A DNA stretch of 64,000 nucleotides from Dehalococcoidia bacterium (GTDB lineage Bacteria > Chloroflexota > Dehalococcoidia > UBA2979), in NCBI GenBank assembly GCA_965262725.1, contig OZ253555.1:3296001-3360000 (forward strand), in the 5' to 3' direction. Below are positions 416-64,000 of the stretch, piece by piece. Positions within the stretch are counted from its first letter, which is position 1. The number at the start of each line of letters is the position of its first letter. The notes beneath the pieces are model-generated. The model was not told the origin of the DNA and searched no databases. It saw only the letters and a program-made list of their open reading frames with translations. The position numbers were made by a program, and so were the translations under genes.

Positions 416-1987
416 ATGCCGAGCAGCCCGTCTCCGAAGAACCTCGTCTGGCCGGTGGACCGCGGGGGCGGCATCCAGGCCAGCTGGGATCCCGACCAGC
501 CGCACATGGAGGGCTCCGCGCAGCCCGCGCCCTACCACACGATCCATCTCCCGTACGAGCCCCTGACCACCCCGCGCATCGCCACCGACGACGAAGGCGT
601 CCTCTACCCGGTCGCCGGCGATCTCCAGAAACGGCTCGCCGAGAGCTGGGAGTCGGCGGACGGCGATCGGACGTGGACCTTCCGGCTGCGCGCCGGACTG
701 CTGAGCCATGCCGGCAACGAGCTGACCGCCGACGACGTGGCGTGGATGGTGGAGCGCGTCTTCGCGCTGCGCGGCGTCGGGCTCTGGCGATTGCGGCGCC
801 TCGCCGGGATCAACGCCCCGTCGGACGTGGAGGCCCTCGACCGGCACACGGTGCGCTTCCGCCTCCGCGGCGCCAACTCGCAGTTCGCGGCGTACTTCGT
901 CTTCGCGACGGGCAACGTCGTCGACTCGACGGAGGCCCGCCGCCACGCCACCGACGAGGATCCGTGGGCGACTGAGTGGCTCTCGAAGAACGCCTGCGGC
1001 TTCGGCCAGTTCTCCGTCGTGCGGCACGACGATCACGAGATCGAATACGCGGCCCGCGACGAACACTGGATGGGGCGCCCGGGGATCGACTCGATCGTGC
1101 AGGTCGGCGTCGACTCCCGCTCCGAGGCCCTGCGCATGCTCACCTCGGGGCACGCCAACATGGCGCTCGGCCTCTACCCGGAGGAGCTCGCGCGCTTCGA
1201 GGGTCGGCCGGAGTTCACGACGCGCCGCATGCGGGCCAACCACTCGACGCTCGAGTTCAACTGGGCCGAGCCGCCGTTCGACGATCAGAAGGTGCGCCAG
1301 GCCGTCTGCTACGCCCTTCCGTACGACCTCATTCTCGACTCCGTCTACGCCGGCCGCGCGCGGCGCAGCCACAGCCCGATCTGCTCCACCTCGGAGTTCC
1401 ACACCGCCGAGTTCGATCCCTACGTGTACGACCTCGAGCGCGCCCGGGGCCTGATGAGGGAGAGCGGCCAGCCCGACGGCTTCGACACGGAGCTGTGGGT
1501 GAAGGGCTCGTACGAGTGTCTGCGGCTCGCGCACATCGTCCGCAACTCCCTGGCGGCGATCGGGATCGGGGTCGAGGTGCGCCTGGACACGCGCGTCCCC
1601 TTCGGGACAAAGGTTCCGATGTGGATCAAGGAAGAATGCAGTCACGCCCTCTACGAGCCGATGTACGACGTCGCCCACGACTACGATCCGCCGCTCGGAA
1701 TGTGGGGCGGGAAGATTAACGTCGACCGGGAGTGGAGCACTCGGATCCGCGCCATCCACTCCGCGGACTCGGCGGAGCAGCCCCGGATCTACCGGGAGAT
1801 CCAGCGCGACCTGATGGAATTCGCGGCCTGCGCCCACATCGCCGAGATCGAGACCGGCTGGGTGTTCCGCGCCGATGTCGACCCGTGGGCGCTCGACCCG
1901 TCCTTCCTGGGCGCCGCCACGACCGTCTGGTCGGCGCACCGCCCGATACTCGGTCTGCGCGAGCTCGACGACGAGTACGAGTGGTAG
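416..1987 (+). CDS. ABC transporter substrate-binding protein, family 5 (OppA/DppA-like), no evident signal peptide
   Basis: Motifs LAESWESADGDRTWTFRLR, ELTADDVAW and PPFDDQKVRQAV. Start chosen at ATG 416 after a TATGAT -10-like box; start uncertain. Confidence 0.8.
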   Translation: MPSSPSPKNLVWPVDRGGGIQASWDPDQPHMEGSAQPAPYHTIHLPYEPLTTPRIATDDEGVLYPVAGDLQKRLAESWESADGDRTWTFRLRAGLLSHAGNELTADDVAWMVERVFALRGVGLWRLRRLAGINAPSDVEALDRHTVRFRLRGANSQFAAYFVFATGNVVDSTEARRHATDEDPWATEWLSKNACGFGQFSVVRHDDHEIEYAARDEHWMGRPGIDSIVQVGVDSRSEALRMLTSGHANMALGLYPEELARFEGRPEFTTRRMRANHSTLEFNWAEPPFDDQKVRQAVCYALPYDLILDSVYAGRARRSHSPICSTSEFHTAEFDPYVYDLERARGLMRESGQPDGFDTELWVKGSYECLRLAHIVRNSLAAIGIGVEVRLDTRVPFGTKVPMWIKEECSHALYEPMYDVAHDYDPPLGMWGGKINVDREWSTRIRAIHSADSAEQPRIYREIQRDLMEFAACAHIAEIETGWVFRADVDPWALDPSFLGAATTVWSAHRPILGLRELDDEYEW

Positions 1988-2024
1988 CGCGCCCTCGCGA
2001 GGCGCGCCGGCCGCGCGGCGGCCG

Positions 2025-3110
2025 TCACTCGCGGATCGGCCGATAGAGGCGGAAGCCGCGCTTCGCGATCCCCGCAGCGATCGGACCGTACGCGGGGCCC
2101 ATCGGATCCATGCTCCTCATCCGCATCGTCCCGCGCTGGATCATGATGTCGGCCGGAGCCAGCTCCGTCGCGCTCTCGAAGTGCCGCGCCGCCGCCTCGC
2201 TGCGCCCGCGCTCCCACAGCCACTGCCCGAGCGCGAACTCCGCGCGCGCCTGCTGCTCCCCGGCCGTCGGCAGCCGCTCCCGCATGAGCTCGCGCGCCCG
2301 CTCCTCGGAGGAGAGCGCCGGCGCCTCACCGCGGGCCCACGCGCGCACGCGCTCGAGATAGGCATCGGGATCGACCCGGACCAGCTTCGCGCCGCCGGGG
2401 TTCATGACCGCGACGTCGTTGGGGCGCGCGATCCGTCCCTCCTCGTCGATCCAGACGATCGTGGGGACGTTGAACATATTGTAGAGCTCGGGCACGCGGT
2501 GGTGCGTATCGATGACGATGGGGTAGCTCGCCCCGGCCGCCTCGATCCAGGGCAGCGCATCGCCGCGGTCGCGGTCGGCCATCACGCCGAAGACCGTGAA
2601 CGGCAGCGCCTCCGCCTCGGCCAGCTCGTGGTGGAGCGCCTGCCACACGGGCAGGTCCTCGCGGCAGCCTCACCAGGAGGCGTGAACGGCGAGGAGCACC
2701 TTCTTCCCGCGGTGATCGGAGATCCTGTGCAGCCGCCCGGCCGCATCGGGGAGTTCGACGTCGGGCGCCTCGAGGCGCGCCAGGGGCGCGGAGCGCTCGG
2801 CGACGGAGGCTCCGAGGGCCGCCGCCCCCTCGGCGAGGTCGACGACCAGCGGGCGGTCGAGCGCCTCGGCGAGCGCGACGAGGTCGAAGCCGTCATCGGT
2901 GGCGAGCGAGGCGGCATCTCGAACCGGGACGCAGAGGGGGCCGCGGCAGAGCCCCTCGGGCTGAAGCGTCCAGCCGAGCTCGCGGGCGACGGCCTCGGCC
3001 GGGAGGTACACCGATTCGCCGCCGACGGTCGCAGCGATCCGGACCTCGCGCGGGGCGGGACCGGCGCTCTCGCCGTCGAGCAGCGTGAGGAGCCCGGCAC
3101 CTGGCACCAT
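2025..3110 (-). CDS. Thioredoxin-fold redoxin (AhpC/TSA/TlpA-like) with C-terminal TPR-like helices; predicted selenoprotein (in-frame UGA)
   Basis: ORFs 2670-3257 and 2025-2648 are in the same frame, joined by TGA at 2672-2670: APDVELPD...RGKKVLLAVHASW-U-GCREDLPVWQ. GGGAGGAG RBS precedes ATG 3110. Confidence 0.8.
2632..2662 (-). promoter_or_regulatory. Candidate bacterial SECIS hairpin
   Basis: Minus strand: CCTGCC-CGTGT-GGCAGG perfect 6-bp stem with a GU-containing loop, starting 15 nt after the UGA. Confidence 0.65.
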
Positions 3111-3259
3111 GTCGTCGCTCCTCCCGGCGGACCGCGCTCCGGCCCGCGCCGATGGTAGCGGCTCGGCGCCGATCGCGGGGGTGGCGCTGGCCATTTCGGA
3201 TGTTGTAGGGTCCACCCGAGCACCACCTCCGTGGTGCCTCGGAGAGGGGGGTTTCACCG

Positions 3260-4921
3260 ATGACAGAATGGCTTGTGCGCGGAGCGATCTCGAGGCGGAG
3301 CCTCCTGCGAGGCGGGGCGCTGGGGGGGCTCGGCCTCGCCACGGCCGCCGTGATCGGCTGCGGCGACGACGACGAGGAGGCGGCGGCGCCGGCGGCGACC
3401 CCGGTGGCCACCGTTGCGGCGGCCGCGACTCCGGAGCCGGCGAAGACGGCGACGCTGCGATTTGCAGCCACCAACCCGATTCCCACGCTGAGCCCGAACT
3501 CGACGGCAGCGAGCGAGTCCGATCTCCACGCCATCTACGACGCTCTCACGCGCCAGCACGCGAACGACACCGGCGGTGCCATCGAGCCGGGGCTCGCCAC
3601 CAGCTGGGAGACGCCGTCGGGCGACGGCCGGACGTGGGTCTTCAACCTGCGCGAGGCCGAGTGGTCGGACGGGACCAAGTTCACGGCCGAGGACGTGGCC
3701 TGGGTCCACGACTTCTACAAGAACCCGGACAGCCAGTCGCGACTGTTCTCGCGCGTCGGCACATATGAGTCCTCGAAGGTGATCGACGACCGGACGATCG
3801 AGATCACGACAGACTACGACCCCATCTTCCCGAAGCGCGAGGGGATCGTCTTCATCCTGCCGAAGCACATCTTCGAGGATGGCTCGATCGACGCCGAGGC
3901 ATTCATGGGGGAGACACCGGTCAGCACCGGCGCCTACATCGGCACGAACTTCCTGCAGGGGCAGCGTGTCGACCTCGTCCAGTCGCCGGCCACCTGGCAC
4001 ACCAACGGCGGCTTCACCAAGGTCGAGTACAACTGGCTCACGGAGACCACGACGCGCGTCGCGGCCTTCGAGACCAACGAGATCGACTTCATTCTCGGCG
4101 TTCCGGACATCGACACCGAGCGGGTCCGGGGCTTCAACAACGTGACCACCGGCGGATCGCCGGGCAACACCAACCGGGCGTGGGACTTCGCCAACATGCC
4201 CGACAAGGATCCGTCGCCGACCAACGACCCCCGCGTGCGTGCGGCGCTCAACCACGCACTCGACCGCGACGGGATCATCCGGACGGCGTACGGCGGCAAC
4301 GGGGTCCCTGCGAAGGACCAGCTGCTCGCGCAGGCGGTCTTCGGCCACCAGCCCGACTGGGCCGTGCCGGCCTACGACTCGGATCTCGCGCGTCAGTACC
4401 TCAGGGACGCCGGCTTCCCCAACGGCACCAACATTTCGATCGACGCGCAGATCCTGACCGCCGCGTCGGGGAAGCCGATTCTCGAGGCGACCATCGGACT
4501 CTGGGACGATGTCGGCGTCACGTCGGACGTCCGCACCATCGAGGTGAACGTCTGGCGCGACCGGCTCTACGGCCGGGCCACGGAGGGACGCCCCGGCGCC
4601 TTCCTGATGGGCTGGTCCTCGTTCCTCTACGAGGGGGCGCTCGCCCTCCAGTGGCACGAGAGCTCGAACCCGTACGGCCTCTGGGACAACCCGGAGTTCG
4701 ACCGGCTCTTCGAGGCCGTCAACAAGGAGGTCGACGGCGAGGAGCGCTTCAACCTCTACCGCCAGCTGATGGAGACGGAGCGGGTGGAGAACGGCGGGCC
4801 GTCGGCGTTCATGAACGGGTCGGACGGCACCATCGCCTGGTACCACACCGTGCTCGACAGCTCGAGCTACACCCCGTGGACGACGCCGACGATCTTCTTT
4901 TCGGAGGTGTCGCCGGCGTAG
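3260..4921 (+). CDS. ABC transporter substrate-binding lipoprotein, family 5, Tat-exported
   Basis: SRRSLLRG twin-arginine motif, lipobox VIGC, Ala/Pro linker, PGLATSWE, WSDGTKFTAEDV, DPRVRAALNHALDR. Confidence 0.88.
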   Translation: MTEWLVRGAISRRSLLRGGALGGLGLATAAVIGCGDDDEEAAAPAATPVATVAAAATPEPAKTATLRFAATNPIPTLSPNSTAASESDLHAIYDALTRQHANDTGGAIEPGLATSWETPSGDGRTWVFNLREAEWSDGTKFTAEDVAWVHDFYKNPDSQSRLFSRVGTYESSKVIDDRTIEITTDYDPIFPKREGIVFILPKHIFEDGSIDAEAFMGETPVSTGAYIGTNFLQGQRVDLVQSPATWHTNGGFTKVEYNWLTETTTRVAAFETNEIDFILGVPDIDTERVRGFNNVTTGGSPGNTNRAWDFANMPDKDPSPTNDPRVRAALNHALDRDGIIRTAYGGNGVPAKDQLLAQAVFGHQPDWAVPAYDSDLARQYLRDAGFPNGTNISIDAQILTAASGKPILEATIGLWDDVGVTSDVRTIEVNVWRDRLYGRATEGRPGAFLMGWSSFLYEGALALQWHESSNPYGLWDNPEFDRLFEAVNKEVDGEERFNLYRQLMETERVENGGPSAFMNGSDGTIAWYHTVLDSSSYTPWTTPTIFFSEVSPA

Positions 4922-5054: not shown

Positions 5055-6683
5055 ATGATCCGCCCAGAGGCCGCCGACTACCAGGGCCACCGCGTGGTGG
5101 GGGCGCGGCTGGCGGAGCCGGTGCTCGACGATGAGATCGGCTTCCACTCCTCCGAGCGCGAGCGCCTGCTGCTTCCCCACTATCACGCGCTCGACCGCGC
5201 GCAGCTCGTCATGCTGGTCGAGCGCGGGCTCGTCACGCGTACTGACGGAGTGAGCATGGCGGCGGGGCTCCGCCGCTTCGTCGAGCCCGGGATCGAGGCG
5301 GGCTACATCTCAGTAGGCGCGGGAATGCACTCTGGCGAGGTCGCCCTCATCGCAGAGCTCGGCGAGGAGGTGGGCGGGCGCCTCGAGATCGGCCGCGCCT
5401 CCGGCGAAGTCGTGCAGGTGGCGTGGCGCCGGATGGAGGCCGCGGCGCTGCGCTCGCTGCTCCATACGCTCGCGGAGGCGCGCGCAGCAATCCTCGAGGT
5501 GGCGGCGGCGCACACCTCGAGCGTGATGCCTGGCTACACGCACAGCCAGCACGCACAGGTCGTGACGCTCGCGCACGTGCTGCTGGCGTGGGAGGCGGGG
5601 CTCGCCCGCTGCTTCGCACGGGGCGCGGAGACGCACGCCCGCGTCAACTGGAGCGCGGCCGGGAGCGGGAACATGAGCGGCAGCGACGCCCCGCTCGATC
5701 GGGCGCGCACGGCCGAGCTGCTCGGATTCGACGGACCGCTCGACAGTACGTACGACGCGATCCAGCACAACGATCACGCGATCGAGTGCCTCGGCCTGCT
5801 CGCCACGCTCGGATCTCTCGTCACGCGCTGGGCGCAGGACCTCTATCTCTACGGCTCGCAGGAGGTCGGTGTCCTTGAGCTACCCGACCGCTTCTGCGGG
5901 ACGAGCGCCCTCATGCCGCAGAAGAAGAACCCCCGCCTGCTGGAGTACCTGCAGGGCGCGTCGGCCTCGGCGCTCGGCGGCCTGGCCACGGCGCTGATGG
6001 TGGAGAAGACACCCTCGGGCGGCGCGATCGTCGAGCGCACCCTCTTCGTCGAGGCGCTCGCTCGGGGCTTTCGCGAGGCGGAACGCAATCTCGGATGGCT
6101 CGCCCTGGCCGTCTCGGAGTCGCAGTGGGACCTGGAGCGGATGCGCTCGCTCGCGCGCACGCACGGGGCGACGTCGAGCACGCTCGCCGCCGCGCTCGCC
6201 CGCGAACGCGGGTGGGCGTGGCGGACCGCGCACGAGGTCGTCGGCACCGCCGTGCGCATCGCGAGCGAGCGCGGCGTCGCGGCCGGCGACCTCACCCCCG
6301 CCCTCCTCGACGAGGCGTCGGAGCTCTACTGCGGGCAGCCGGCGGGGCTGAGCGCCGAGAGCGTCGCGAGCGCCCTCGATCCGCTGGAGGCGGTGAGGCG
6401 CCACGCCCTGCTCGGAGGACCGGCGCCGGAGGAGAGCATCCGGCTGCTCCCGGAGCGCCGCGCCGCGCTGGCCCGCGACCGGGAACGCCTCTCTCAGCTC
6501 ACCGCTCACGCGGAGTCGGCCGCACGGACGCTCGAGGCCACCTTCGATCGGGTCGCGCGGGGGGAGCCGTCCGGCCGCGCGAAGGGGCGCGCGCGCGCCA
6601 CGGGAGTCGCACACCCGGTACCCGCCGGGGCGTCGGACAAGAGCGCCGACGGCCGGCCAACGCCGCGCCCCGACCCCCCTTAA
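5055..6683 (+). CDS. Argininosuccinate lyase-like C-N lyase (fumarase/aspartase superfamily)
   Basis: MPGYTHSQHAQ, GTSALMPQKKNP signature and WRTAHEVVG. The stop TAA lies in the IS1380 target duplication. Confidence 0.8.
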   Translation: MIRPEAADYQGHRVVGARLAEPVLDDEIGFHSSERERLLLPHYHALDRAQLVMLVERGLVTRTDGVSMAAGLRRFVEPGIEAGYISVGAGMHSGEVALIAELGEEVGGRLEIGRASGEVVQVAWRRMEAAALRSLLHTLAEARAAILEVAAAHTSSVMPGYTHSQHAQVVTLAHVLLAWEAGLARCFARGAETHARVNWSAAGSGNMSGSDAPLDRARTAELLGFDGPLDSTYDAIQHNDHAIECLGLLATLGSLVTRWAQDLYLYGSQEVGVLELPDRFCGTSALMPQKKNPRLLEYLQGASASALGGLATALMVEKTPSGGAIVERTLFVEALARGFREAERNLGWLALAVSESQWDLERMRSLARTHGATSSTLAAALARERGWAWRTAHEVVGTAVRIASERGVAAGDLTPALLDEASELYCGQPAGLSAESVASALDPLEAVRRHALLGGPAPEESIRLLPERRAALARDRERLSQLTAHAESAARTLEATFDRVARGEPSGRAKGRARATGVAHPVPAGASDKSADGRPTPRPDPP

Positions 6684-6794
6684 CCCTGATCCACCGAAGA
6701 AGAGTGCGCGAGCGGCTGGGGTTGGGTGCTCCGCTGTAGCTGGGACAATGGTTTTTGACCGAATCACGTCACAGCCACAGGGAGCACCCATTCG

Positions 6795-8120
6795 ATGTTA
6801 GCAACGAGCAGCCCCGACCGGATACACATCGCCTTCGACGACGACCGCCTCGTGGACCACGCGGGCCTGCTGCTCCCGGCCACGCTCGCTGGCCGGCTCG
6901 GCCTCCGTGAACTGGCAGACGCCCACCTCGACCTCGGTGACGCAGCGGGGCGGGCGAACGTCGGCGACAAGCTGATGACTCTCATCGCCTCGGCGCTCGC
7001 GGGCGGCGACTGCATCGATGACGCCGATGCCATGCGCTCAGGCGGCGCCGGGCGCGTGCTCGGCTGCACGGTGAAGGCGCCGTCCACCCTCGGGACGTTC
7101 CTGCGCAGCTTCCGCTGGGGCCACGTCCGCCAGCTCGACCGCGTCAGCCGCGAGTTGCTGGCCCGCAGTTGGGCGGCCGGGGCGGGACCCGGCGCGGCAC
7201 CGTTCACGATCGACCTCGACTCGACGCTCTGCGAGACCTACGGACTGGCGAAAGAGGGCGCCCGGCACCACGGCTACACGGGCGTGCGCGGCTATCACCC
7301 GCTGCTCGCGGTGGCGGCCGGGACGGGTGAGGTGCTGATGGCCCGGCTGCGCGGGGGCCGTGCCAACACCGCTCGGGGGGCCGCCCACTTCCTGCGTGAG
7401 ACGGTGGGCCGGGTGCGCGACGCCGGGGCGAGCGGGCAGCTCACGGTGCGCGCCGACAGCGGCTTCTACAACCACGCTGTCGTCGCCGTCTGTCGCAAGC
7501 AGGATGTCCGCTTCTCCATCACCATTCGGCAGCAGCCGAACGTACGCCGGCTGATCGAGGCGATACCGGAAGAGGACTGGACGCCGATCCCGTACTGGCA
7601 GGACGACGGCGCCGCTGTCGCCGAGACGACCTACACGCCGTTCCAGCACACGAGGGACGCCACCGCGGTGCGGCTCATCGTGCGGCGCGTCAAGCCGACG
7701 CCCGGCTCACAGCTCGCGCTCTTCGTGAACTACAGTTACCACGCCTTCATCACCGATCGCGCGGGGGAGATGATGGAGCTGGAGGCCGACCATCGCCGTC
7801 ACGCCGAGATCGAGAACGCGATCCGCGACCTCAAGTACGGCGTCGGGTTGAACCATCTCCCCTCGGGCCGCTTCGCCGCGAACGCGGCGTGGCTCGCGGT
7901 GCAGGTGATCGCGCACAACCTCGCCCGCTGGACGGCACGCCTCGGGCTCGGCGAGGGGATCGTGACGACCAGGACGCTCAGGCGGCGCTACTTCTCTCTC
8001 GCCGGACGGCTCACCCACTCTGCCCGGCGGTGGACCCTGCACCTCCCGAAGCGCTGGCCCTGGGCCGGGCAGCTGGCAGCCGCGCTCGCGCGACTACGGG
8101 CGATACCGCTCCCGACCTGA
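6795..8120 (+). CDS. IS1380-family DDE transposase
   Basis: 441 aa; TIDLDST, GYHPLLA, VRADSGFY, HRRHAEIENAIRDLKYG, LPSGRFAANAAW. Confidence 0.93.
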   Translation: MLATSSPDRIHIAFDDDRLVDHAGLLLPATLAGRLGLRELADAHLDLGDAAGRANVGDKLMTLIASALAGGDCIDDADAMRSGGAGRVLGCTVKAPSTLGTFLRSFRWGHVRQLDRVSRELLARSWAAGAGPGAAPFTIDLDSTLCETYGLAKEGARHHGYTGVRGYHPLLAVAAGTGEVLMARLRGGRANTARGAAHFLRETVGRVRDAGASGQLTVRADSGFYNHAVVAVCRKQDVRFSITIRQQPNVRRLIEAIPEEDWTPIPYWQDDGAAVAETTYTPFQHTRDATAVRLIVRRVKPTPGSQLALFVNYSYHAFITDRAGEMMELEADHRRHAEIENAIRDLKYGVGLNHLPSGRFAANAAWLAVQVIAHNLARWTARLGLGEGIVTTRTLRRRYFSLAGRLTHSARRWTLHLPKRWPWAGQLAAALARLRAIPLPT

Positions 8121-8404
8121 CGCCCGCTCACAGCGCCGAACCGGAGCCGAAGCTCGCGCCAGCATGCCCGCCCACGCCTCGCGCACCCTCGCGCCCGCAC
8201 CCTCAGCGCCCCCGAGCGGTGCTGAGCGACGGCTCCTGGCTCCGGCCCGCCCCCGGCGCCGCCCGGCGAACGCCGACACACCCGTCGAACTCTCCGGCAG
8301 CCCGGCACCCCGCCTCGTCAAGCTTCGTTCGGTTCGCGGTAGGGATGCCGGTTGCCCGGCACCCCCCGCACAGATCCGGACGTGCCCTCTCGGGCATCCG
8401 GCTC

Positions 8405-9733
8405 CTACCTCAAGTGCGTGACGGCAAATCGCTCCGCAGGCCACGGGTGAAGGATGGAGATTCGGGGCCAGTGTCCCTGGCACAGGGCAAGGATGCGCTC
8501 CCACGTGAAACGGTCGCGCTGCGACCGCCGTCGGAGAACGCGCAGCCAGAGCCGCTTCACGAAACGGACAAACCGCGTGAGCGCCGGCGAGCTGGTCGGC
8601 ACCGCGTAGTAGCCAAGCCACCCACGCAGTACCCGCCCCAGCCACTGCCCCGTCGTCACGGGGTTGTCGTGCATGCGCCGCCACAACTCGGCCTTGATGA
8701 CCTTCAGCGTCCGGCGCATCCGCTTCGCAACGGGCTTGCGCCCCAGCCCGAATCTCCCGTCGCGTCGGGTCCGGCAGTAGTGCGTCATGCCGAGAAAGTC
8801 GAACGTTTCCGGTCGGCCCTCCCCGCGCTTCCGCCTGTTCGCCAGCGCGAACCTGCCGAACTCAAGTAGACGGGTCTTCTCCGGGTGCAGCTCCAGCCCG
8901 TAGGCCGCGAACCGCTCCCGGAGTGCCTCCATGAACCGCACCGCATCGCTGCGGTGCTGGAACCCCAGGACGAAGTCATCGGCATACCGCACGATGTACG
9001 CCTCGCCCCGGACCTCCCGCGGTCGCCACTCGCGCGCAAACCAGTCGTCGAGCACGTTGTGCAGGTACACGTTCGCAAGCAGCGGCGATATCGGCGCCCC
9101 CTGCGGCATCCCCCGCACGAAATCGACTTCCGGCTCCGCGTCCATGACGCCGACGCTCAGCCACTTTCGTATCAGGCGCAACACCCGCTGGTCCCCGATG
9201 CGCATCTCCAGAAACGACATCAGCCGCCCCCGGTCGATGCTGCCGAAGAACTCCCGGATGTCCACCTCGACAATCCAGCTGACCTTGCGCCGTTCGACCG
9301 CGTAGGCCAGTGCGTCCAGCGCGTCATGCGCCGAACGCCCCGGCCTGAAGCCATGCGAGAAGCCGTAGTAGCCCGACTCGTAAATCGGGTTCAAAAGATT
9401 GTCCACCACCGCCCGCTGAACGATCTTGTCCTCCAGCGAGACGATACCGAGCGGCCGTATTCCCCCGTCCGGCTTGGGTATCTCTACCCGCCTGACGGGC
9501 TTCGCCCGGTACGCTCCACGGTGTACGCGGCCATGCAGGTCGAGCAATCGCTCGTCCAGCCCGTCCCCGTATTCTCGCCACCTCACCCCGTCCACGCCCG
9601 GAGCCGCATCCCGCTTCAACGCGAGATACGCCTCCCGCAGCGCCTCCGGCGTGATGTGGTGCAAGAGCGCGGTGAGTTTCTCTCCCGGCTTCCGTTCCAC
9701 GAACTGCCGTATCCTCTCCGCTCCGGGTGACAC
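8405..9733 (-). CDS. ltrA: Group II intron reverse transcriptase/maturase
   Basis: AAPGVDG, IPKPDGGIRPLGI, GFRPGRSAHDAL, GMPQGAPISPLLANVYLH, RYADD, FDFLG. Ends ILHPWP with no HNH domain. Confidence 0.95.
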   Translation of the reverse strand: MSPGAERIRQFVERKPGEKLTALLHHITPEALREAYLALKRDAAPGVDGVRWREYGDGLDERLLDLHGRVHRGAYRAKPVRRVEIPKPDGGIRPLGIVSLEDKIVQRAVVDNLLNPIYESGYYGFSHGFRPGRSAHDALDALAYAVERRKVSWIVEVDIREFFGSIDRGRLMSFLEMRIGDQRVLRLIRKWLSVGVMDAEPEVDFVRGMPQGAPISPLLANVYLHNVLDDWFAREWRPREVRGEAYIVRYADDFVLGFQHRSDAVRFMEALRERFAAYGLELHPEKTRLLEFGRFALANRRKRGEGRPETFDFLGMTHYCRTRRDGRFGLGRKPVAKRMRRTLKVIKAELWRRMHDNPVTTGQWLGRVLRGWLGYYAVPTSSPALTRFVRFVKRLWLRVLRRRSQRDRFTWERILALCQGHWPRISILHPWPAERFAVTHLR

Positions 9734-9849
9734 CGCACCCCGACTCTGCGTCCGGACCGTGCCGGTGCTTTGAGGATTCCTCTCGGTTGGGGCCCTTTGC
9801 TCCAGCGACTCCGCCGGGGCTCGCGCCCCCTTCTATGAGGGTCGTCTGA

Positions 9850-10170
9850 TCCGCAAGGCCGACGTGGCGGCCTTCTGCACCGTTCTACCGATCGCGCCTC
9901 CCGTCCGCAGCCCTGTGGTGGTTGTCGGTGCCGATGCGAGTGGTGCCGCCGTCTTGTCCCCGGGACGTTGTGGTGACCGTGCTTCTATTCGCACTCGTCG
10001 AGGGGCCGCTCCGGGCCCGGTGCATGATGATCAGCCTGTCTCCAGGGTGTGGGCGCTGCCATCTTGTTCCCGTCCTCGTTGGGACCAGGGGGTTCCGCAG
10101 TCGCCCGCGTGTCGGCATCTCTCGTATCCTCCGAAGCCCACCGGCCGCCCGGTCGCCTCGCTCCTCGCGT
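9850..10170 (-). ncRNA. Candidate bridge/seek RNA in the IS1111 3' non-coding end
   Basis: ~345-bp non-coding end downstream of the recombinase. It contains CTTGTTC (10063-10069; core plus target flank) and CTTCTAT (9982-9988; core plus element end). RNA limits are approximate. Confidence 0.6.
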
Positions 10171-10178
10171 GCTGTCTG

Positions 10179-11270
10179 CTACGCCGCCTCGGCCGCGCGC
10201 GCGTGGCGCAACGGCTCGTAGACCTCCCCGCTCTTCCAGAGCGCAAGCATCAGCACCGCCAGTCGCCTCGCGACCGCGACGACGGCACGCTTCTTCGCAT
10301 TGCCGGCCCCCGACTCCGCGTAACGCAGCCCCCACCTGCGGAGGTCGCTGTCGGGGCCGAAGGGGCCCAGGATGTAGTGCGCGGCCTGGTTCAGCACCCG
10401 GCGCAGCGCCACGTCCCCTTCCTTCGTGATCCGCAGCTGGGGCTGCCGATCACCGGAATCGCGGCTCCGGGGCACCAGCCCCAGGTAGGGCCCCACCTCC
10501 CTGTTCTTGGGGAAGCGGGCCGGGTCCTCGATGGTGAGGATGAAGGTGAGCGAGGTGATCGGGCCGACGCCCACGATCTGCCGCAGCGCGCCGGTCTCCG
10601 CGTAGCGCTCGCACATCGCGGCGAGCTTCTTGTCGGCCTGGCGGATCTCCCCGGTCAGCTGCTCGATCTGGTGGAGCACCGGCAGCAGCGCCGGGCCCAG
10701 CTCCTCGGGGATGTGCTCTCTGACCGCGCGGTGGAAGGCCGGCGCCGTGCAGCCCGGAAGCGCCGCGCCCCACGCCTTCACCGCGCCCCGGACGTGGTTG
10801 ATGAACATCGTGCGCGCCCGGACCAGCGCCTCGCGGCTGCGGAGCACCTGGAGGTCCGCCTGCGCCATGGCGCTTCGGTGCCGGATGGGGAAGAGGAGCG
10901 CCGGGTCGAATCGGCCGAGCCGTGCGAGGTGCTCGGCATCGGAGCGGTCGGTCTTGCGCTGGCTGCGCGCGATCAGCCTGACCTGCCTCGGGTTGGCGAC
11001 GATCACGTCGTGACCGAGCTCCGCGAACATCCGGCTCAGCCACGGGGAACGCGGCCCCACCTCCATCACCACCCGGGCGCCCTGCAGTGGGGTGAGCGCC
11101 CGCGTGAGCGCCGCGGTCGTGGTGCGGACTCGCTCCTCCCGCACGATCTCCCCGTCGCCACCGAGGACGCAGAGGTGGCTGTAGCGGTCGCTGACGTCGA
11201 TGCCGACAGTCACGAGCTCCGCATCCCCCACCTTCCTGCTCTCTGTGACATCTGATGTACGCTGTGCCAC
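10179..11270 (-). CDS. IS110-family DEDD recombinase/transposase
   Basis: VTVGIDVS, VMEVG, KTDRSDA, YLGLVPRSRDSG, AVVAVARRLA. GTG 11270 follows an AGGTAGGAG RBS. Confidence 0.92.
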   Translation of the reverse strand: MAQRTSDVTESRKVGDAELVTVGIDVSDRYSHLCVLGGDGEIVREERVRTTTAALTRALTPLQGARVVMEVGPRSPWLSRMFAELGHDVIVANPRQVRLIARSQRKTDRSDAEHLARLGRFDPALLFPIRHRSAMAQADLQVLRSREALVRARTMFINHVRGAVKAWGAALPGCTAPAFHRAVREHIPEELGPALLPVLHQIEQLTGEIRQADKKLAAMCERYAETGALRQIVGVGPITSLTFILTIEDPARFPKNREVGPYLGLVPRSRDSGDRQPQLRITKEGDVALRRVLNQAAHYILGPFGPDSDLRRWGLRYAESGAGNAKKRAVVAVARRLAVLMLALWKSGEVYEPLRHARAAEAA

Positions 11271-11834
11271 GGTCGGTCTCCTACCTCTCTCGGCTCGCCT
11301 GAGCCGTTCTCCTGGGCCACCACGTGAGCCCGTGCTTGGAGGGGAAGTATCCCCTCTGAGGAGGGGACCGACCCTCATGTCATCTTGTTCGCCGCCTTCA
11401 TCGCTCGTACGGCCCCATCAGACTGCTGCGCATCGTTCATCATCGGCTACGGTTTACGTCCCTTCCCGACGCGGTCCCGGCGTACGACTCGTCGGGACAA
11501 CGCGCAGCTCTCCCAAGTCCCGGCGATAGACGTGTGTGCGTGCATGGGGTCTTCGACACCGTGGGGCCCGACCACGACTCGCCAGTAGCGCCGTCGCCGG
11601 TATTGCCTTCGACCAATCCAAGAGCCTCGGCACCCCAAATGGCCCTTTCGATGCTCATTAGCCCCGCCCGCACACCCCGCTGCCGACGCTTCACAAGCCG
11701 CCTCGCGACGACCCGCGCACGGCTCGCGGAATGACATGAGTGGCTAGCTCTTTGCCATAGAGGACTTCCACCTCCTGCCTACTCGCCAGTTAGCCTGGCG
11801 CTCTGGATTCGAGCTTAAGGGCGGGGACGCCCGA

Positions 11835-11849: not shown

Positions 11850-12341
11850 ATGCAACCCCTCGCCGGCATCATCATGGGCTCCTCCTCCGACTGGGAGACG
11901 ATGCGCCTCACCGCCGACGTGCTCGAGGAGCTCGGCGTGCCGCACGAGGTACGCGTGATCTCCGCGCACCGGACGCCGGACCTCCTCTTCGAGTACGCGT
12001 CCACCGCCCGGGAGCGTGGGCTCCAGGTGATCGTGGCCGGCGCCGGGGGCGCGGCGCACCTGCCGGGAATGACCGCCGCCAAGACGGCCCTGCCCGTGAT
12101 CGGCGTGCCGGTCGAGTCGAAGGCGCTGAGCGGACTCGACTCGCTGCTCTCGATCGTCCAGATGCCGGCAGGCGTACCGGTGGCGACGGTGGCGATCGGC
12201 GCGGCCGGGGCCCGCAACGCCGGCCTGCTCGCCGCAGCGATCCTCGCCCCGGGCCGCCCCGCCATCGCCGAGGCGCTCGATAGCTACCGCACGCGTCAGA
12301 CCGACGGCGTCCTCGCGCAGCCGGATCCCCGCCAGGGCTGA
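11850..12341 (+). CDS. purE: N5-carboxyaminoimidazole ribonucleotide mutase
   Basis: [43 protein letters not shown]. Confidence 0.97.
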
Positions 12342-49345: not shown

Positions 49346-49591
49346 CTGCCCCCGGGGGAGCACTGTAGCGAACGGTTGTTGAATCTCCGCCCAATCTGGA
49401 GCGGTATTGGTACCACTTCTGTGCAATCACGCCGCCAGCTGTCTCCGAGCGAATACTGTGAATCGCCAAGGTCTATAGACCACGAAATCGCCAGATCGCC
49501 AGGGTCATTGATCCACCCCGTCAGGGACTCCTGCCCGCCCGGGTCGCCGGTACGGCCACCATCGCCTGCATCCCCAGCGGAGGGAGCAGCG

Positions 49592-51172
49592 ATGGCCTAC
49601 CGGGAGGTACACGGGGTGGAGATCCAGGAGATCATTCGACGCTGGCAGGCGGGGCTCAGCCAGCGCCGCATCGCCAGCGGCACGGGGCTATCGCGCGTGA
49701 CGGTGCGCCGCTACGTCGAGGCGGCCGAGGCGGCCGGCCTCACGCCGGGCGGTCCCGAGCCGAGTGAGGAGCAGCTCGCCGCGCTGGCGACGCTGAGCCT
49801 CTCCGGCCCGCGGCAGGTCGAGGCGCCGAGCGAGGAGCTGCTCTCGCCCTGGGCGGAGCAGATCGAGCGCTGGCTTGAGACCGACCGCCTGCAACTGACG
49901 CGCATCCAGGAGCTCCTCGCCGGACGAGGCTGCGAGGTCTCCTACACCACGCTGCGGCGTTTCATCCGGCGCCGCGGCTGGCGCCACCGGCTGCCGTCGA
50001 CCGTGCGCATGGACGACGGGCCGCCGGGCGAGGTGGCGGAGATGGACTTCGGCCGCCTCGGCTTCATCCGGGACCCCGAGAGCGGCCGCCGGCGCGCGGT
50101 GTGGGCGCTGGTCGTCGTCTGGCGCTACTCACGCCACTGCTTTGTGTGGCCCACCACCAGCCAGAAGCTGGACGCTGTGATCGAGGGCCTGGAGGAGGCC
50201 TGGGCCTTCTTCGGGGGCGTGCCGCGCTACCTCGTCATCGATAACTTCCCGGCCGCCGTCGCCGGGGCCGACGCGCTGCACCCGCGCTTCACGCGGGGCT
50301 TCCTCGAGTACGCCCGCCACCGCGGCTTCATCACCGACCCCGCGCGCGTGCGTCATCCCCGCGACAAGCCGCGCGTCGAGCGCAGCATCCCCTACGTGCG
50401 CGAGCGCCTCTTCAAGGGCGGCGACTTCCGGGACGTCGTCGACCTGCGCTCCGCCGCCCGCAGCTGGTGCCTCGAGGTGGCGGGGCAGCGCATCCACGGC
50501 ACGACACGCCGGCGCCCGCTCGAGGTCTTCCTGAAGGAGGAGCTCCCTCTGCTCGCTCCCTGGGACGGCGAGCCCTACGAGGTCCCCGACTGGCGGACGG
50601 CCACGGTCCACCCGGACCACCACATCGCCTGCCAGTACGCCCTGTACTCGGTGCCGTCCATGGCCTGCCCGCCCCGCCAGAAGGTCGAGGTGCAGCTCGG
50701 CTCGAAGCTGGTGCGCATCTACCACCGCGGTCAGCTCATCAAGGTGCACCCGCGCCAGCGCCGGGGCGGCCGGGCCACCGACCCGAACGACTACCCGGCC
50801 GAGCTCACCCCCTACACCAGGCGGGCGCCCGACTGGATACAGCGCCGCGCCGCCGAGCTGGGGGAGGCCGTGGGCGCCTACGCCGAGCGTCTCTTCGAGG
50901 GCTCCCTGCCCTGGGCGAAGCTGCGGCAGGGCCACAAGCTCCTCCGCCTCGCCGAGCGCTACTCCCCCGACCGCCTCGATGCCGCCTGCCGCCGCGCGCT
51001 CGAGGTCGACCTCATCGACGTGCGCCGCCTCGAGCGCATCCTCGTCGAGGCCCTCGACCAGGAGAGCACCCCAGACCAGCCCGAGCTGCCGCCGCCTCCG
51101 GGGCGCTTCGCCCGCTCGGGCTCCGTCTTCGCCCAGTCCCGCACGCAGACCCCGACAGGAGCACCACGATGA
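49592..51172 (+). CDS. istA: IS21 transposase
   Basis: N-terminal HTH, PGEVAEMDFG, VIDN, PRDKPRVER, RIHGTT. Confidence 0.93.
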   Translation: MAYREVHGVEIQEIIRRWQAGLSQRRIASGTGLSRVTVRRYVEAAEAAGLTPGGPEPSEEQLAALATLSLSGPRQVEAPSEELLSPWAEQIERWLETDRLQLTRIQELLAGRGCEVSYTTLRRFIRRRGWRHRLPSTVRMDDGPPGEVAEMDFGRLGFIRDPESGRRRAVWALVVVWRYSRHCFVWPTTSQKLDAVIEGLEEAWAFFGGVPRYLVIDNFPAAVAGADALHPRFTRGFLEYARHRGFITDPARVRHPRDKPRVERSIPYVRERLFKGGDFRDVVDLRSAARSWCLEVAGQRIHGTTRRRPLEVFLKEELPLLAPWDGEPYEVPDWRTATVHPDHHIACQYALYSVPSMACPPRQKVEVQLGSKLVRIYHRGQLIKVHPRQRRGGRATDPNDYPAELTPYTRRAPDWIQRRAAELGEAVGAYAERLFEGSLPWAKLRQGHKLLRLAERYSPDRLDAACRRALEVDLIDVRRLERILVEALDQESTPDQPELPPPPGRFARSGSVFAQSRTQTPTGAPR

Positions 51173-51942
51173 CCGCCACCACCTCAGACCTCCGCCCGCT
51201 GCTCAAGCGCCTCAAGCTCGGCCGTATGCTCGACACCCTGCCCGAGCGCATCGCCCTCGCGCGGCGCGACCACCTCGACTACGCGGACTTCCTGCAGATC
51301 CTGCTCGTCGACGAGGTGAGCCGCCGCGACCACGGGCGGTTGGAGCTGCGCCTGCGCCAGGCCGGCTTCGAGCAGCTCTGCCGCCTCGAGGACTTCGACT
51401 GGGCGGCCGCCATCCGGCTCGACCGCCGCCTGCTCGACGCCGCCTTCTCGCTGCACTTCCTCGATCGCCGCGAGCACGTCCTGCTCGTCGGCCCCGTCGG
51501 CGTCGGCAAGAGCTTCTTAGCCCAGGCGCTCGGCTACTCAGCCGTCCGCTCCGGACGCAGCGTCCGCTTCGCCCCGGCCGACCACTACTTCCGCGAGATG
51601 GCGCAGGCCCGCGTCGACCACTCGGCCGAGAAGGTCTTCCGAAGCTTCCTCGCGCCCGACCTGCTCATCCTCGACGACCTCGGGCTCCATCGCCTCAGCG
51701 CGCAGCAGTCCATCGACCTCTACGAGCTGGTCATCGGGCGCCACCGCAGCTCCAGCTTCGTCATCACCTCGAACCGCGCCGTGGAGGAATGGCTGGGGCT
51801 CTTCGACGACCCGATCCTCGGCAACAGCGCCCTCGACCGGCTCGCGAACGCCAGCTACCAGATCGTGATCGAGGGCGATAGCTACCGCCAGCGGCTCTCG
51901 CCGCACCGCGCCCTGCTCGAGGCGCAGACGGGAGGTGATTGA
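51169..51942 (+). CDS. istB: IS21 helper AAA+ ATPase
   Basis: GPVGVGKS Walker A, LLILDDLG Walker B, ITSNR, ALDRL; ATGA overlap with istA. Confidence 0.94.
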   Translation: MTATTSDLRPLLKRLKLGRMLDTLPERIALARRDHLDYADFLQILLVDEVSRRDHGRLELRLRQAGFEQLCRLEDFDWAAAIRLDRRLLDAAFSLHFLDRREHVLLVGPVGVGKSFLAQALGYSAVRSGRSVRFAPADHYFREMAQARVDHSAEKVFRSFLAPDLLILDDLGLHRLSAQQSIDLYELVIGRHRSSSFVITSNRAVEEWLGLFDDPILGNSALDRLANASYQIVIEGDSYRQRLSPHRALLEAQTGGD

Positions 51943-52264
51943 CGCGCTAGACGCTCACTGATATCAAGCCGCCTACCGGCGTCCCGGGTGGTCTAATGAC
52001 CGTGGCGACGCGTGGATCAATGACCCTGGCGATCGACAAATACACACCACCGTACTCCGCAGCTTGTCGTGCCATCGACCGGTGCCCCGTGCAATGGCCT
52101 GAGCCGCAGCCGTCGAGCAGCGGCTCGAACGAGCTGGACCAGGCTCGCAGCGAGACGGCGCCCGGGCAGCAGGAACAGGCCGCTTCGCCCCGCGGGGCCG
52201 GCCGCGGCAAGCAGCGCAGCAAGCACCCCAGCCGGCCCGCCGCAGGCGCTCCGGCGGACGACCG

Positions 52265-61963: not shown

Positions 61964-63601
61964 CCCGGATCCACCGGTGACCGGTGTTGAGCGTGCGGAG
62001 GAGCGCGAAGCGGCCGTCGTGTGAGGTGCGGGAGCCGTTTGTGACTCCCGGAGGAGTGCTCGGCGCTGTCCGGGGCGTGTGATCAGCAGGGGAGACCGGC
62101 GCGGAGGCGATTGCGGACAGGCTGGCGCGCGGCGCTGGTCCGCGAGCGGCGAGGGGGAGCGGCGTCAGGTCGGGAGCGGGAGCGCGCGCAGCCGTGCGAG
62201 GGCATCGGTGAAGTGACCGGCCCATGGCCAGCGCGCCGGCAGATGGAGCGTGAACCGACGAGCAGAGCGGGTCAGCCGCCCGACGAGAGCGAAGAGCCGC
62301 CGCCGGAGCGTCCGGGTGGTGACGATGCGCTCGCCGAGCCCGAGCCGCGCCGTCCAGCGAGCGAGATTGTGGGCGATCACCTGGACCGCGAGCCAGGCGC
62401 CGTTGGCGGCGAAGCGGCCGGACGGCAGGTGATTGAGCCCCACGCCGTACTTCAGGTCGCGGATCGCGTTCTCGACCTCGGCGTGGCGGCGATGGTCGGC
62501 CTCCAGTTCGAGCGTCTCTCCGTCGCGGTCGGTGATGAAGGCGTGGTAGCTATACGTCGCGAAGAGAGCGAGCTGCGAACCAGGCGTCGGCCGCACGCGC
62601 CGGACGATGAGCCGCACCGGGACGGCGTCCGGCGCGTGTGCGAACGGCGTGTAGGTCGTCTCTGAGACATCGGCGCCGCCCTCCAGCCAGTACGGGATCG
62701 GCGTCCACTCCTGTTCGGGAATCGCCTCGATGAGCTTCCGCAGCTTCGGATGCTGGCGGATCGTGACCGAGAAGCGGACATCCATCTCGCGGCAGGCAGC
62801 GACCACCGCGCGGGAGTAGAAGCCGCTGTCGGCGCGCACCGTGAGTTGCCCGTTCGCTCCGGCATCGCGGACTCGACCCACCGTCTCCTGTAGGAAGTGG
62901 GCGGCGCCCCGGTCGCTGTACGCACGACCCCCGCGCAGCCGGGCCATTAGCACGTCACCCGTCCCGGCCGCCACCGCGAGCAGCGGGTGATAGCCGCGCG
63001 CACCGGTGTAGCCGGGGCGCTGCGCCCCCTCCTTGGCGAAGCCGTAGGTCTCGCACACCGTCGAATCGAGGTCGATGGTGAATGGCGCCTCGCCGGGTCC
63101 GGCCCCGGCGGCCCAGGCGCGGGCAAGCAGCGCGCGACTGACGCGGTCGAGCTGGCGGACGTGGCCCCAGCGGAAACTGCGTAGGAAGGTGCCGAGCGTG
63201 GATGGCGCCTTGACGGTGCATCCGAGAACGCGCTCTGTGCCGCCGGCGCGCAACGCATCGGCATCGTCGATGCAGTCGCCGCCCGCTAGCACGGAGGCGA
63301 CGAGTGTCGCGACCTTGTCTCCCGCGTTCGCCCTGCCCTGTGCGTCGCCGAGGTCGAGATGACGGTCGACCAGCTCCCGCAGGCCGAGACGTTCGGCGAG
63401 CGTGGCCGGCAGGAGCAGACCCGCGTGGGCCACCAGGCGGTCGTCGTCGAAGGCGATCGAGAGCCGGGCGGGGCTGCTCGGTGATAGCATCGAATGGGTG
63501 CTCCCTGTTTCCGGTGGATCGTTCGCTTCACGACCATTCTCCCAGATTCAGAGGAGCACCCAATTCCCTCTCTTCGCGACTGCATCCACGCTCTCCTTCG
63601 G
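61964..63601 (-). mobile_element. IS1380-family element (copy 3, divergent isoform), left terminal repeat split by a group II intron
   Basis: Right end CCCGGATCCACCG at 61964. Upstream end CTCTCCTTCGG (to 63601) resembles the inner part of the copy-2 left end and is followed directly by intron sequence. Confidence 0.88.
62165..63490 (-). CDS. IS1380-family DDE transposase
   Basis: 441 aa, colinear with the 6795-8120 protein but with many substitutions. Confidence 0.93.
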   Translation of the reverse strand: MLSPSSPARLSIAFDDDRLVAHAGLLLPATLAERLGLRELVDRHLDLGDAQGRANAGDKVATLVASVLAGGDCIDDADALRAGGTERVLGCTVKAPSTLGTFLRSFRWGHVRQLDRVSRALLARAWAAGAGPGEAPFTIDLDSTVCETYGFAKEGAQRPGYTGARGYHPLLAVAAGTGDVLMARLRGGRAYSDRGAAHFLQETVGRVRDAGANGQLTVRADSGFYSRAVVAACREMDVRFSVTIRQHPKLRKLIEAIPEQEWTPIPYWLEGGADVSETTYTPFAHAPDAVPVRLIVRRVRPTPGSQLALFATYSYHAFITDRDGETLELEADHRRHAEVENAIRDLKYGVGLNHLPSGRFAANGAWLAVQVIAHNLARWTARLGLGERIVTTRTLRRRLFALVGRLTRSARRFTLHLPARWPWAGHFTDALARLRALPLPT

Positions 63602-64000
63602 TTCGCGGTAGGGATGCCGGTTGCCCGGCACCCCCCGCACAGATCCGGACGTGCCCTCTCGGGCATCCGGCTCCTACCTCAAGTGCGTGACGGCAAATCG
63701 CTCCGCAGGCCACGGGTGAAGGATGGAGATTCGGGGCCAGTGTCCCTGGCACAGGGCAAGGATGCGCTCCCACGTGAAACGGTCGCGCTGCGACCGCCGT
63801 CGGAGAACGCGCAGCCAGAGCCGCTTCACGAAACGGACAAACCGCGTGAGCGCCGGCGAGCTGGTCGGCACCGCGTAGTAGCCAAGCCACCCACGCAGTA
63901 CCCGCCCCAGCCACTGCCCCGTCGTCACGGGGTTGTCGTGCATGCGCCGCCACAACTCGGCCTTGATGACCTTCAGCGTCCGGCGCATCCGCTTCGCAAC
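63602..64000 (-). mobile_element. Group II intron copy 2 (3' end: RT C-terminus, domains V-VI; truncated by window edge)
   Basis: Matches ~8333-8730 with no difference seen by eye; ORF 63674-63988 equals the C-terminus of the 8405-9733 protein. Confidence 0.92.

Follow-up and report, generated by a model that had tools for sequence, protein, structure and literature searches.

The window analysed here, a 64,000-nucleotide (nt) stretch at positions 3,296,001–3,360,000 of the single-contig 3.67-Mb genome of a Dehalococcoidia bacterium (contig OZ253555.1), contains a nest of three mobile elements between a lyase-like open reading frame (ORF) and purE. Between these two genes lies a 5135-bp insert with CTTAA at both borders, composed of an IS1380-family insertion sequence (IS), a group II intron within the right inverted repeat of that IS, and an IS1111-type element of the IS110 family within the intron. 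All three element reading frames, for the IS1380 transposase, the reverse transcriptase (RT)/maturase and the DEDD transposase, are intact. Families were assigned with profile or covariance models against the models' own cut-offs (NF033539, 180 bits; TIGR04416, 300 bits; NF033542, 140 bits; RF02005, 49 bits; RF00029, 40 bits). Coordinates are those of the window unless given as genome positions.

The three nested elements

The outer tier and its neighbours comprise the following features.

5055–6683: lyase-like ORF, upstream neighbour of the nest
6679–6683: left copy of the CTTAA duplication, containing the TAA stop of the lyase-like ORF
6684–8332, plus strand: IS1380-family element from its left inverted repeat to the intron insertion point (1649 of 1659 nt)
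6795–8120, plus strand: IS1380-family DDE transposase, 441 amino acids (aa), intact (NF033539; PF13701)
11804–11813, plus strand: outer 10 nt of the IS1380 right inverted repeat; the minus-strand reading is the intron 5′ exon
11804–11809: intron-binding sequence 1 (IBS1) AAUCCA, within those 10 nt, minus-strand reading
11814–11818: right copy of the CTTAA duplication, whose first base is the G at −11 of the intron target
11850–12341: purE, neighbour on the other side of the nest

The IS1380 transposase matches NF033539 at 338 bits over residues 11–421, and the element has terminal inverted repeats with tips CCCTGATCCACCGAAG and CTCGAATCCACCGAAC. It is present in the genome as 12 near-full copies at 95.9–100% identity and two more lacking the first 100 nt. 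Members of the IS1380 family typically duplicate 4–5 bp of target; the direct duplication is 5 bp here, CTTAA in the nest and TGTAT at a neighbouring copy. The empty chromosomal site is seen in contigs of two public runs (X6 and X7, from two studies), in which 6678 is joined to 11814 with 5135 nt skipped and five letters shared. The TAA stop of the lyase-like ORF (6681–6683) lies inside the duplicated CTTAA, so the gene was not truncated by the landing of the IS1380.

The middle tier is the group II intron, on the minus strand, with the features below.

8333–11803, minus strand: whole group II intron including the inserted IS; 1-nt boundary ambiguity (shared A)
11387–11803, minus strand: intron 5′ segment, domains I–III and the predicted 5′ strand of the domain IV base (RF02005; domain fold)
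8333–9832, minus strand: intron 3′ segment, the remaining domain IV with its ORF and domains V and VI (100% identity to uninterrupted copies)
11547–11768, minus strand: RF02005 domain I match (170 bits against a cut-off of 49)
8332–8406, minus strand: RF00029 domains V/VI match (39.9 bits against a cut-off of 40, E = 1.4e-5)
8405–9733, minus strand: RT/maturase, 442 aa, YADD present (TIGR04416)
11615–11621, minus strand: loop UUGGAUU of exon-binding sequence 1 (EBS1), a hairpin loop in the RF02005 alignment; co-variation in five lineages
11642–11646, minus strand: candidate EBS2 AGGGC, which would pair with GC(C/U)C(U/G) at −11 to −7; co-variation

The RT/maturase matches TIGR04416 at 326 bits over residues 30–403, and the family match is followed by only about 39 residues, too few to accommodate an endonuclease domain. 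Joined together, the two intron pieces (1500 + 417 nt) show 100% identity to 1917-nt copies that stand uninterrupted at other places in the genome. The window contains another, IS-free copy of this intron, which begins at 63602 and runs past the window end (locus 62157–64000; genome 3358157–3361518). Its insertion point is position 9/10 of the left repeat in an IS1380 relative of 82% identity, and it differs from the nested intron at one of 1917 positions.

The inner tier lies in the same strand and orientation as its host intron and has the following parts.

9833–11386, minus strand: IS1111-type (IS110-family) element, 1554 nt with one AAG counted; 3-nt boundary ambiguity (repeated AAG/CTT)
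10179–11378, minus strand: DEDD transposase ORF (NF033542; PF01548 and PF02371)
11369–11378, minus strand: left subterminal inverted repeat ATGAGGGTCG, after a 7-nt extension (AG + ATGAC)
9835–9844, minus strand: right subterminal inverted repeat CGACCCTCAT, before a 3-nt extension AGA
10087–10092, minus strand: guide-like block A, CCCCCT (element positions 1295–1300), complementary to the target top strand (core AG + GGGG)
10063–10069, minus strand: guide-like block B, GAACAAG (element positions 1318–1324), with the same sequence as the top strand on the target's left side and in the core; it would pair with the bottom strand
9974–9988, minus strand: donor-guide-like stretch ATAGAAG-CACG-GTCA, which changes with the element's own ends in a variant copy

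The hallmarks of IS1111 elements, as described in part of Siddiquee et al. (PMC11187229), are 7-nt and 3-nt extensions, subterminal repeats usually of 11–13 bp, a downstream non-coding region and a GL-P----S(T)G motif. The extensions here are AGATGAC (left) and AGA (right) if the element is taken to include one AG core, and the two subterminal repeats match perfectly over 10 bp, 1 bp under the usual range. The transposase ORF matches NF033542 at 216.6 bits, with the match beginning at residue 57, and carries the motif as GLVPRSRDSG at residue 300; its true start is likely to be a GTG at residue 50 or 56, giving a protein of 344–350 aa. The non-coding region downstream of the transposase spans 346 nt (9833–10178), compared with approximately 150–170 nt upstream of the likely start.

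An earlier, sequence-only reading of the window had described this architecture as an IS1380 bounded by CTTAA, its right repeat split by a group II intron and the intron split in turn by an IS1111-type IS110, with each layer restored by removal of the one inside it. The anatomy agrees at every tier. The CTTAA copies are in place, and it is there that the sequence of the empty site is joined; the intron is recognized by RF02005, RF00029 and TIGR04416, and the inner element by NF033542, its subterminal repeats and its downstream non-coding region. Excision of the IS gives GCGCCCC-CTT-GTTCGCC, the sequence of the uninterrupted introns, and excision of the intron gives the IS1380 end TTCGG-TGGATTCGAG, the intact form of which stands at 237–251.

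Insertion sites and matching guide sequences

Every junction of the intron lineage found in the nest (intron A, copies of at least 97.9% identity) was mapped genome-wide. The 5′ junctions lie at IS1380-type 10-nt tips, C(C/T)C(T/G)(G/A)ATCCA, in 14/14 copies, and IS1380-family sequence is present on the exon-2 side in 12 of the 14, one copy being truncated before its 3′ end. The 3′ junctions of near-identical copies run on as CCG(A/G) of the repeat interior in 12/13 cases. Another 25 IS1380-type tips are still empty, and none of the approximately 22 ATCCA^CCGA sites outside IS ends (judged by eye) is occupied by an intron anywhere in the genome. The site belongs to the inverted repeat and is therefore present in both IS1380 ends, so the intron can enter either; by hand tally, the occupied tips comprise nine left and three right ends. 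Cumulative GC skew varies over a small range and is lowest near 0.40 Mb and highest near 2.51 Mb; on that basis, 10/14 introns would be co-oriented with the leading strand by hand count.

The EBS1 sequence UGGAUU can base-pair with (A/G)AUCCA at positions −6 to −1, in the repeat tip. The −11 to −7 target of the candidate EBS2 extends one base into the flanking duplication, and G at −11 is enriched in occupied tips: AG at −12/−11 is found in 13/14 occupied and 11/25 empty tips (Fisher p = 0.005). At the nest locus itself, CTTAA puts AA at these positions in the empty left end and AG in the occupied right end. Pairing between EBS and exon was compared across lineage A and the four others listed here.

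Lineage B: EBS1 CCCAUU, 5′ exon end AAUGGG; EBS2 GAUGC, upstream exon GCAUC
Lineage L035: EBS1 CUCGCA, 5′ exon end UGCGGG; EBS2 GUGGC, upstream exon GCCGU (two wobble pairs)
Lineage L047/L052: EBS1 UGGUAU, 5′ exon end AUGCCA or GUACCA; EBS2 AGGGC, upstream exon GCCCU
Lineage L048: EBS1 CAGCGA, 5′ exon end UCGCUG (one-base offset from the extrapolated boundary); EBS2 CUGUC, upstream exon GACGG (one wobble)

The four have different EBS1 loops, each complementary to its own 5′ exon with some wobble pairs, and the candidate EBS2 loop behaves likewise. Another EBS2 candidate, GGGCU (intron positions 140–144), was dropped in favour of AGGGC (158–162), the one loop of the two that varies with the target across lineages. 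The match between EBS1 and landing site noted in the sequence-only reading is thus upheld by both complementarity and co-variation.

The inner element is also site-specific. Its full-length copies (99.7–100% identity) all occupy one intron site, GGCGAAC-AAG-GGGGCGC (4/4, including one in a hybrid intron of divergent sequence), with insertion at GGCGAACA-AG-GGGGCGC in the site sequence GGCGAACAAGGGGGCGC, and all empty copies of the site 17-mer in the genome fall within introns (10/10). The site is located 99 nt upstream of the RT start, and in the minimum-energy fold of an ORF-deleted construct the sequence immediately preceding domain V is the pairing partner of the site's left half. This fold places the site at the base of domain IV, probably on the 5′ strand of its basal stem, and not in domain III as had been proposed earlier.

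In the IS1111 seekRNA, the complement of the top strand precedes the bottom-strand match, the two overlap in the target, and natural reprogramming occurs between close relatives, as described in part of PMC11187229. The blocks of the nested element follow the same arrangement, with block A (the top-strand complement) ahead of block B and an overlap at the AG core. A variant at 92–96% identity (genome 1707872–1712034) has a different target, CCTCCCTC-AG-CTTCCGC, of which no empty copy exists in the genome; its blocks are CGGAAGCT and CCCTCAG, and these are the main differences from the nested element in that region. Its donor-guide-like stretch shifts together with its own ends, CATAG becoming CATGG on the right and ATGAC becoming ATGGC on the left.

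In a cross-match, block A matches its own flanks over 6, 9, 7, 8 and 4 nt and block B over 7, 5, 7 and 7 nt, and every other pairing reaches 2–4 nt; in two further variants, block A matches its own flanks over 9 and 8 nt. Six related copies with other targets, including copies from two other genomes, have different blocks that match their own flanks, which bears out the earlier proposal that the guide-like blocks of the nested IS correspond to its landing site. The sequence GCGCCC (element position 1331) was ruled out as the right-hand target guide because variants that have different targets retain it.

The comparison set consisted of 61 genomes, the source genome among them; its relatives of the same genus and the same family are metagenome-assembled Dehalococcoidia. 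Sizeable IS matches were found in three other genomes (G001, G003 and G008) and intron matches in two (G003 and G008), and the three-tier nest was not found outside the source genome among the 61. At the loci fetched from other genomes, the related IS copies lie outside introns.

Assembly of the nest and rival explanations

The nest was very probably built by three successive and independent insertions: an IS1380 into CTTAA, then an RNA-guided intron, then an RNA-guided IS1111-type element. Each layer peels off cleanly, which gives this order of events. An IS1380-family element would have transposed into CTTAA at the stop codon of the lyase-like gene. An intron without an endonuclease domain would then have entered the right inverted repeat of the IS1380 by retrohoming, in the outer part of that repeat, EBS1 UGGAUU pairing with AAUCCA (−6 to −1) and AGGGC with GCUCG (−11 to −7). 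Finally, the IS1111-type element would have inserted near the base of intron domain IV under the guidance of an RNA produced from its own 346-nt downstream region, with CCCCCT pairing to the top strand, GAACAAG to the bottom strand and an overlap at the AG core. The intron parts the outer 10 bp of the IS1380 repeat from the rest and the IS enlarges domain IV; each guest may disable its host or tolerate it.

The nest could also reflect untargeted insertions that simply persisted inside other mobile DNA because they did the cell no harm. The genome is indeed crowded with such DNA: a 2.6-kb repeat has approximately 20 copies (one at 49496–52037, genome 3345496–3348037), of which one lies in the IS110 variant (genome 1708744–1711347) and one in a second IS1111-type element (genome 2021058–2023659), and at genome 1950181 an IS1380 right tip abuts position 387 of an intron A in what looks like an untargeted DDE insertion or recombination. 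Against passive stacking stand the base-identical junctions of the intron (14/14) and of the IS (4/4), the complementarity of the guides to their sites and their change with the target in relatives; identity of a site to the single base is beyond the reach of selection alone. The differences in outer flanks and intron haplotypes argue against segmental duplication of one nest as the source of the identical junctions. For the two inner tiers, passive stacking is already contradicted, and as an account of the nest it is exceedingly improbable. The view of the sequence-only reading, a programmed chain rather than chance stacking, has gained in firmness because it now draws on co-variation of guides and targets in both inner tiers and not on single matches.

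Wrongly joined repeats, with the 5.1-kb nest not being one molecule, are a further and very unlikely explanation. The relatives' genomes are metagenome-assembled, and the contigs of the public runs are short and break at repeats. A junction was counted as bridged in those runs when at least 31 letters lay on each side; none of the contigs listed bridges a nested junction by this rule, and none listed in the four public short-contig runs spans the whole stretch. The best contig over the IS/intron junction 11386/11387 (run X5, 11112–11413) has 27 letters on one side and was not counted, and a contig joint from 9829 to 11384 (1554 nt skipped), with sides of 20–21 letters, adds nothing beyond the genome's own uninterrupted introns. 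Misassembly is opposed by the presence of the same three-tier order at three loci of a single-contig genome, with different outer flanks and intron haplotypes, and by the CTTAA that brackets exactly the whole nest and at which the empty site joins in two other samples.

The number of targeting events would be overstated if the elements had spread as composites, either through retrohoming of the intron with its IS (3.47 kb) or through co-transposition of IS1380 and intron. Domain IV of group II introns tolerates inserts, and the IS lies within it in the orientation of the intron. A related genome, moreover, contains an intron-in-IS1111 nest amplified within a larger repeat (1561–3481 identical nt upstream), and all four copies of the second IS1111-type element sit inside introns, so that its events cannot be counted separately. 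In the nest's own lineage, however, the three full-length introns bearing the IS have three haplotypes, each with an IS-free copy as its nearest relative, at a distance of one change (11 variable sites, which gene conversion could blur), and the fourth IS copy occupies the divergent hybrid intron. Because the haplotypes differ, the IS arrived separately in each of these introns, and composite spread is unlikely, if less so than either misassembly or passive stacking.

Several observations weigh against RNA-guided assembly or narrow it. The guide RNA, the splicing and the mobility of the elements are read from sequence. The RF00029 match falls marginally below its cut-off, and all A-lineage introns start with GAGCG, not the consensus GUGYG; related lineages of the same genome start with GTGCG. 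Lineages L038–L044 pair EBS1 at just three to five of six positions, the last three pairs being common, and L042 and L043 fail simple EBS1 pairing. The expectation that intron copies always sit in IS1380 ends stood at the 5′ junctions and gave way in two places: a 588-nt intron 3′ fragment has an odd flank, CAGCCGAAGA, and the copy at genome 2475993–2477909, between cadherin-like and fibronectin-type genes, has a repeat-like 15-mer with no adjacent IS1380 transposase. The match between the nested IS and its target is short (block A 6 nt, block B 7 nt), and one 11-mer GAACAAGGGGG outside introns is unoccupied, so that either more bases are read than these or chance and selection contribute. The assignment to domain IV comes from a single minimum-energy fold.

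Known systems and a wider web of nested elements

The IS1111-family elements IS4321 and IS5075 target the terminal inverted repeats of Tn21-family transposons, a cis-essential site. They share with the present case the specialization on a cis-essential site of another mobile element, and differ in that their host is a Tn3-family transposon end and the stack has two tiers, not three. In the bridge RNA of IS621, of the IS110 group, target binding and donor binding are assigned to separate parts, and the core has two bases, CT (AG when read from the opposite strand); a likeness to it is the donor-guide-like stretch here, which changes with the element's own ends. According to part of PMC11187229, the IS110 group encodes its RNA upstream of the transposase, with the guide order reversed relative to IS1111.

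Targets chosen by RNA in the IS1111 family include attC sites (ISKpn4/ISPst6) and REP sequences (ISPa11), as reported in part of PMC11187229. The nested element resembles ISEc11, ISKpn4/ISPst6 and ISPa11 in its DEDD transposase, its subterminal repeats with 7-nt and 3-nt extensions and its downstream non-coding region. Unlike them, it has a group II intron ribozyme as its target and a 10-bp repeat.

For the middle tier, the closest parallels are RmInt1 in ISRm2011-2 and RmInt2 in ISRm17 of Sinorhizobium meliloti, introns that home inside multicopy IS elements, are said to block IS spread and recognize their sites by EBS–IBS pairing, with occasional ectopic sites of similar IBS (part of PMC5894124). 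As here, a bacterial group II intron has its natural homing site inside a multicopy IS. The host in those cases is an IS630-family element with an internal homing site, whereas the present intron has its site in the outer 10/11 nt of the terminal repeat of an IS1380-family element, so that the site is present at both ends, and itself hosts a third element. IS-homing introns and RNA-targeted IS1111 elements being already established, the mechanisms of both inner tiers are known and ordinary. The literature searched contained no IS110/IS1111 element or IS1111 guide aimed at a group II intron, although the supplementary target tables of PMC11187229 (more than 300 IS) could hold such a case, and it contained no intron aimed at an IS1380 repeat tip, no stacking of both in one locus and no such natural series of reprogrammed guides.

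The chain of the nest is one path in a wider web of nested elements. A second intron lineage of the source genome is ORF-less, 2625 nt long and confirmed by its domains V/VI, and its three copies lie 8 nt upstream of an IS1380 transposase start, in antisense.

Genome 1921199–1923823, 1951737–1954484 and 2020542–2027212: ORF-less intron lineage with the second IS1111-type element (L063, L064)

This second IS1111-type element (1973 nt, 370-aa transposase) is present in every copy of the ORF-less intron, between domains I and II, at the target CCGGGAC-CT-GGGAG. Two seekRNA-like modules of 251 nt, 88% alike, stand in tandem in its non-coding region (approximately 2070–2700 of L063; approximately 1330–1850 of the element). 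Module 1 has the blocks CGGGACC/TCCCAG and module 2 CGGAACC/ATATCAG; only the former match the occupied intron site, and module 2 may be a copy that has decayed or may serve as the guide to a different target. At one locus the element is interrupted by the 2.6-kb repeat, giving four tiers.

The order of host and guest is reversed in another Dehalococcoidia genome, where a related intron (83%) lies between positions 7 and 8 of an IS1111-type left end (L047, L049, L050, L051, L054 and L059), with the 5′ exon ..GGCCCTCATGCCA and EBS1 UGGUAU. These copies represent one amplified composite, and one event, because 1561–3481 identical nt upstream are common to them. In another genome (L053, 5345–6998), the 3′ part of a group II intron contains an IS1380 that is 90% identical to that of the window. 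Several loci (L035, L037 and L055 of G008; genome 734423–736345) have a further intron lineage (85%) in a site that is conserved and hairpin-like, ..GAGCCGTGTGCGGG^AGAACCGCA(C/T)G..; the EBS1 of this lineage, CUCGCA, fits UGCGGG. Two chimeric introns (L036/L032 of G008; L056) have an IS1380-type tip as 5′ exon and the target of another lineage as 3′ exon, which suggests recombination between intron copies at different sites.

It is possible, if somewhat doubtful, that these Dehalococcoidia genomes harbour RNA-guided mobile elements linked in a food web, each living mainly on other such elements and switching hosts by small changes of guide. In its favour, a change of EBS1 from UGGAUU to UGGUAU takes the intron from GCCCU-GAUCCA, the tip of an IS1380, to GCCCU-CAUGCCA, the left end of an IS1111-type element; two different IS1111-type elements are aimed at two sites of the same intron family; and one IS1111-type element has two tandem seekRNA-like modules, possibly for two targets. 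The guests also lie in sites that the host needs in cis, namely the inverted-repeat tip, the translation start region and the domain IV base. Such a web, if true, would act as mutual control of copy number and leave the genes of the cell largely untouched.

The seven related IS1111-type elements, in each of which the blocks match a target of its own, form a natural guide–target set, and sets of this kind offer a route to the pairing rules of seekRNAs and bridge RNAs without engineering. The nest suggests that an RNA-guided DNA transposon can select the ribozyme of a retroelement as its target, and that a group II intron can specialize on a terminal repeat that its host IS cannot alter without losing mobility. 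Occupied and empty sites stand side by side in one genome, 14 against 25 for the IS tips and 4 against 10 for the intron sites. If each guest disables its host, the result would be a layered control of mobile DNA that is testable within this one genome.

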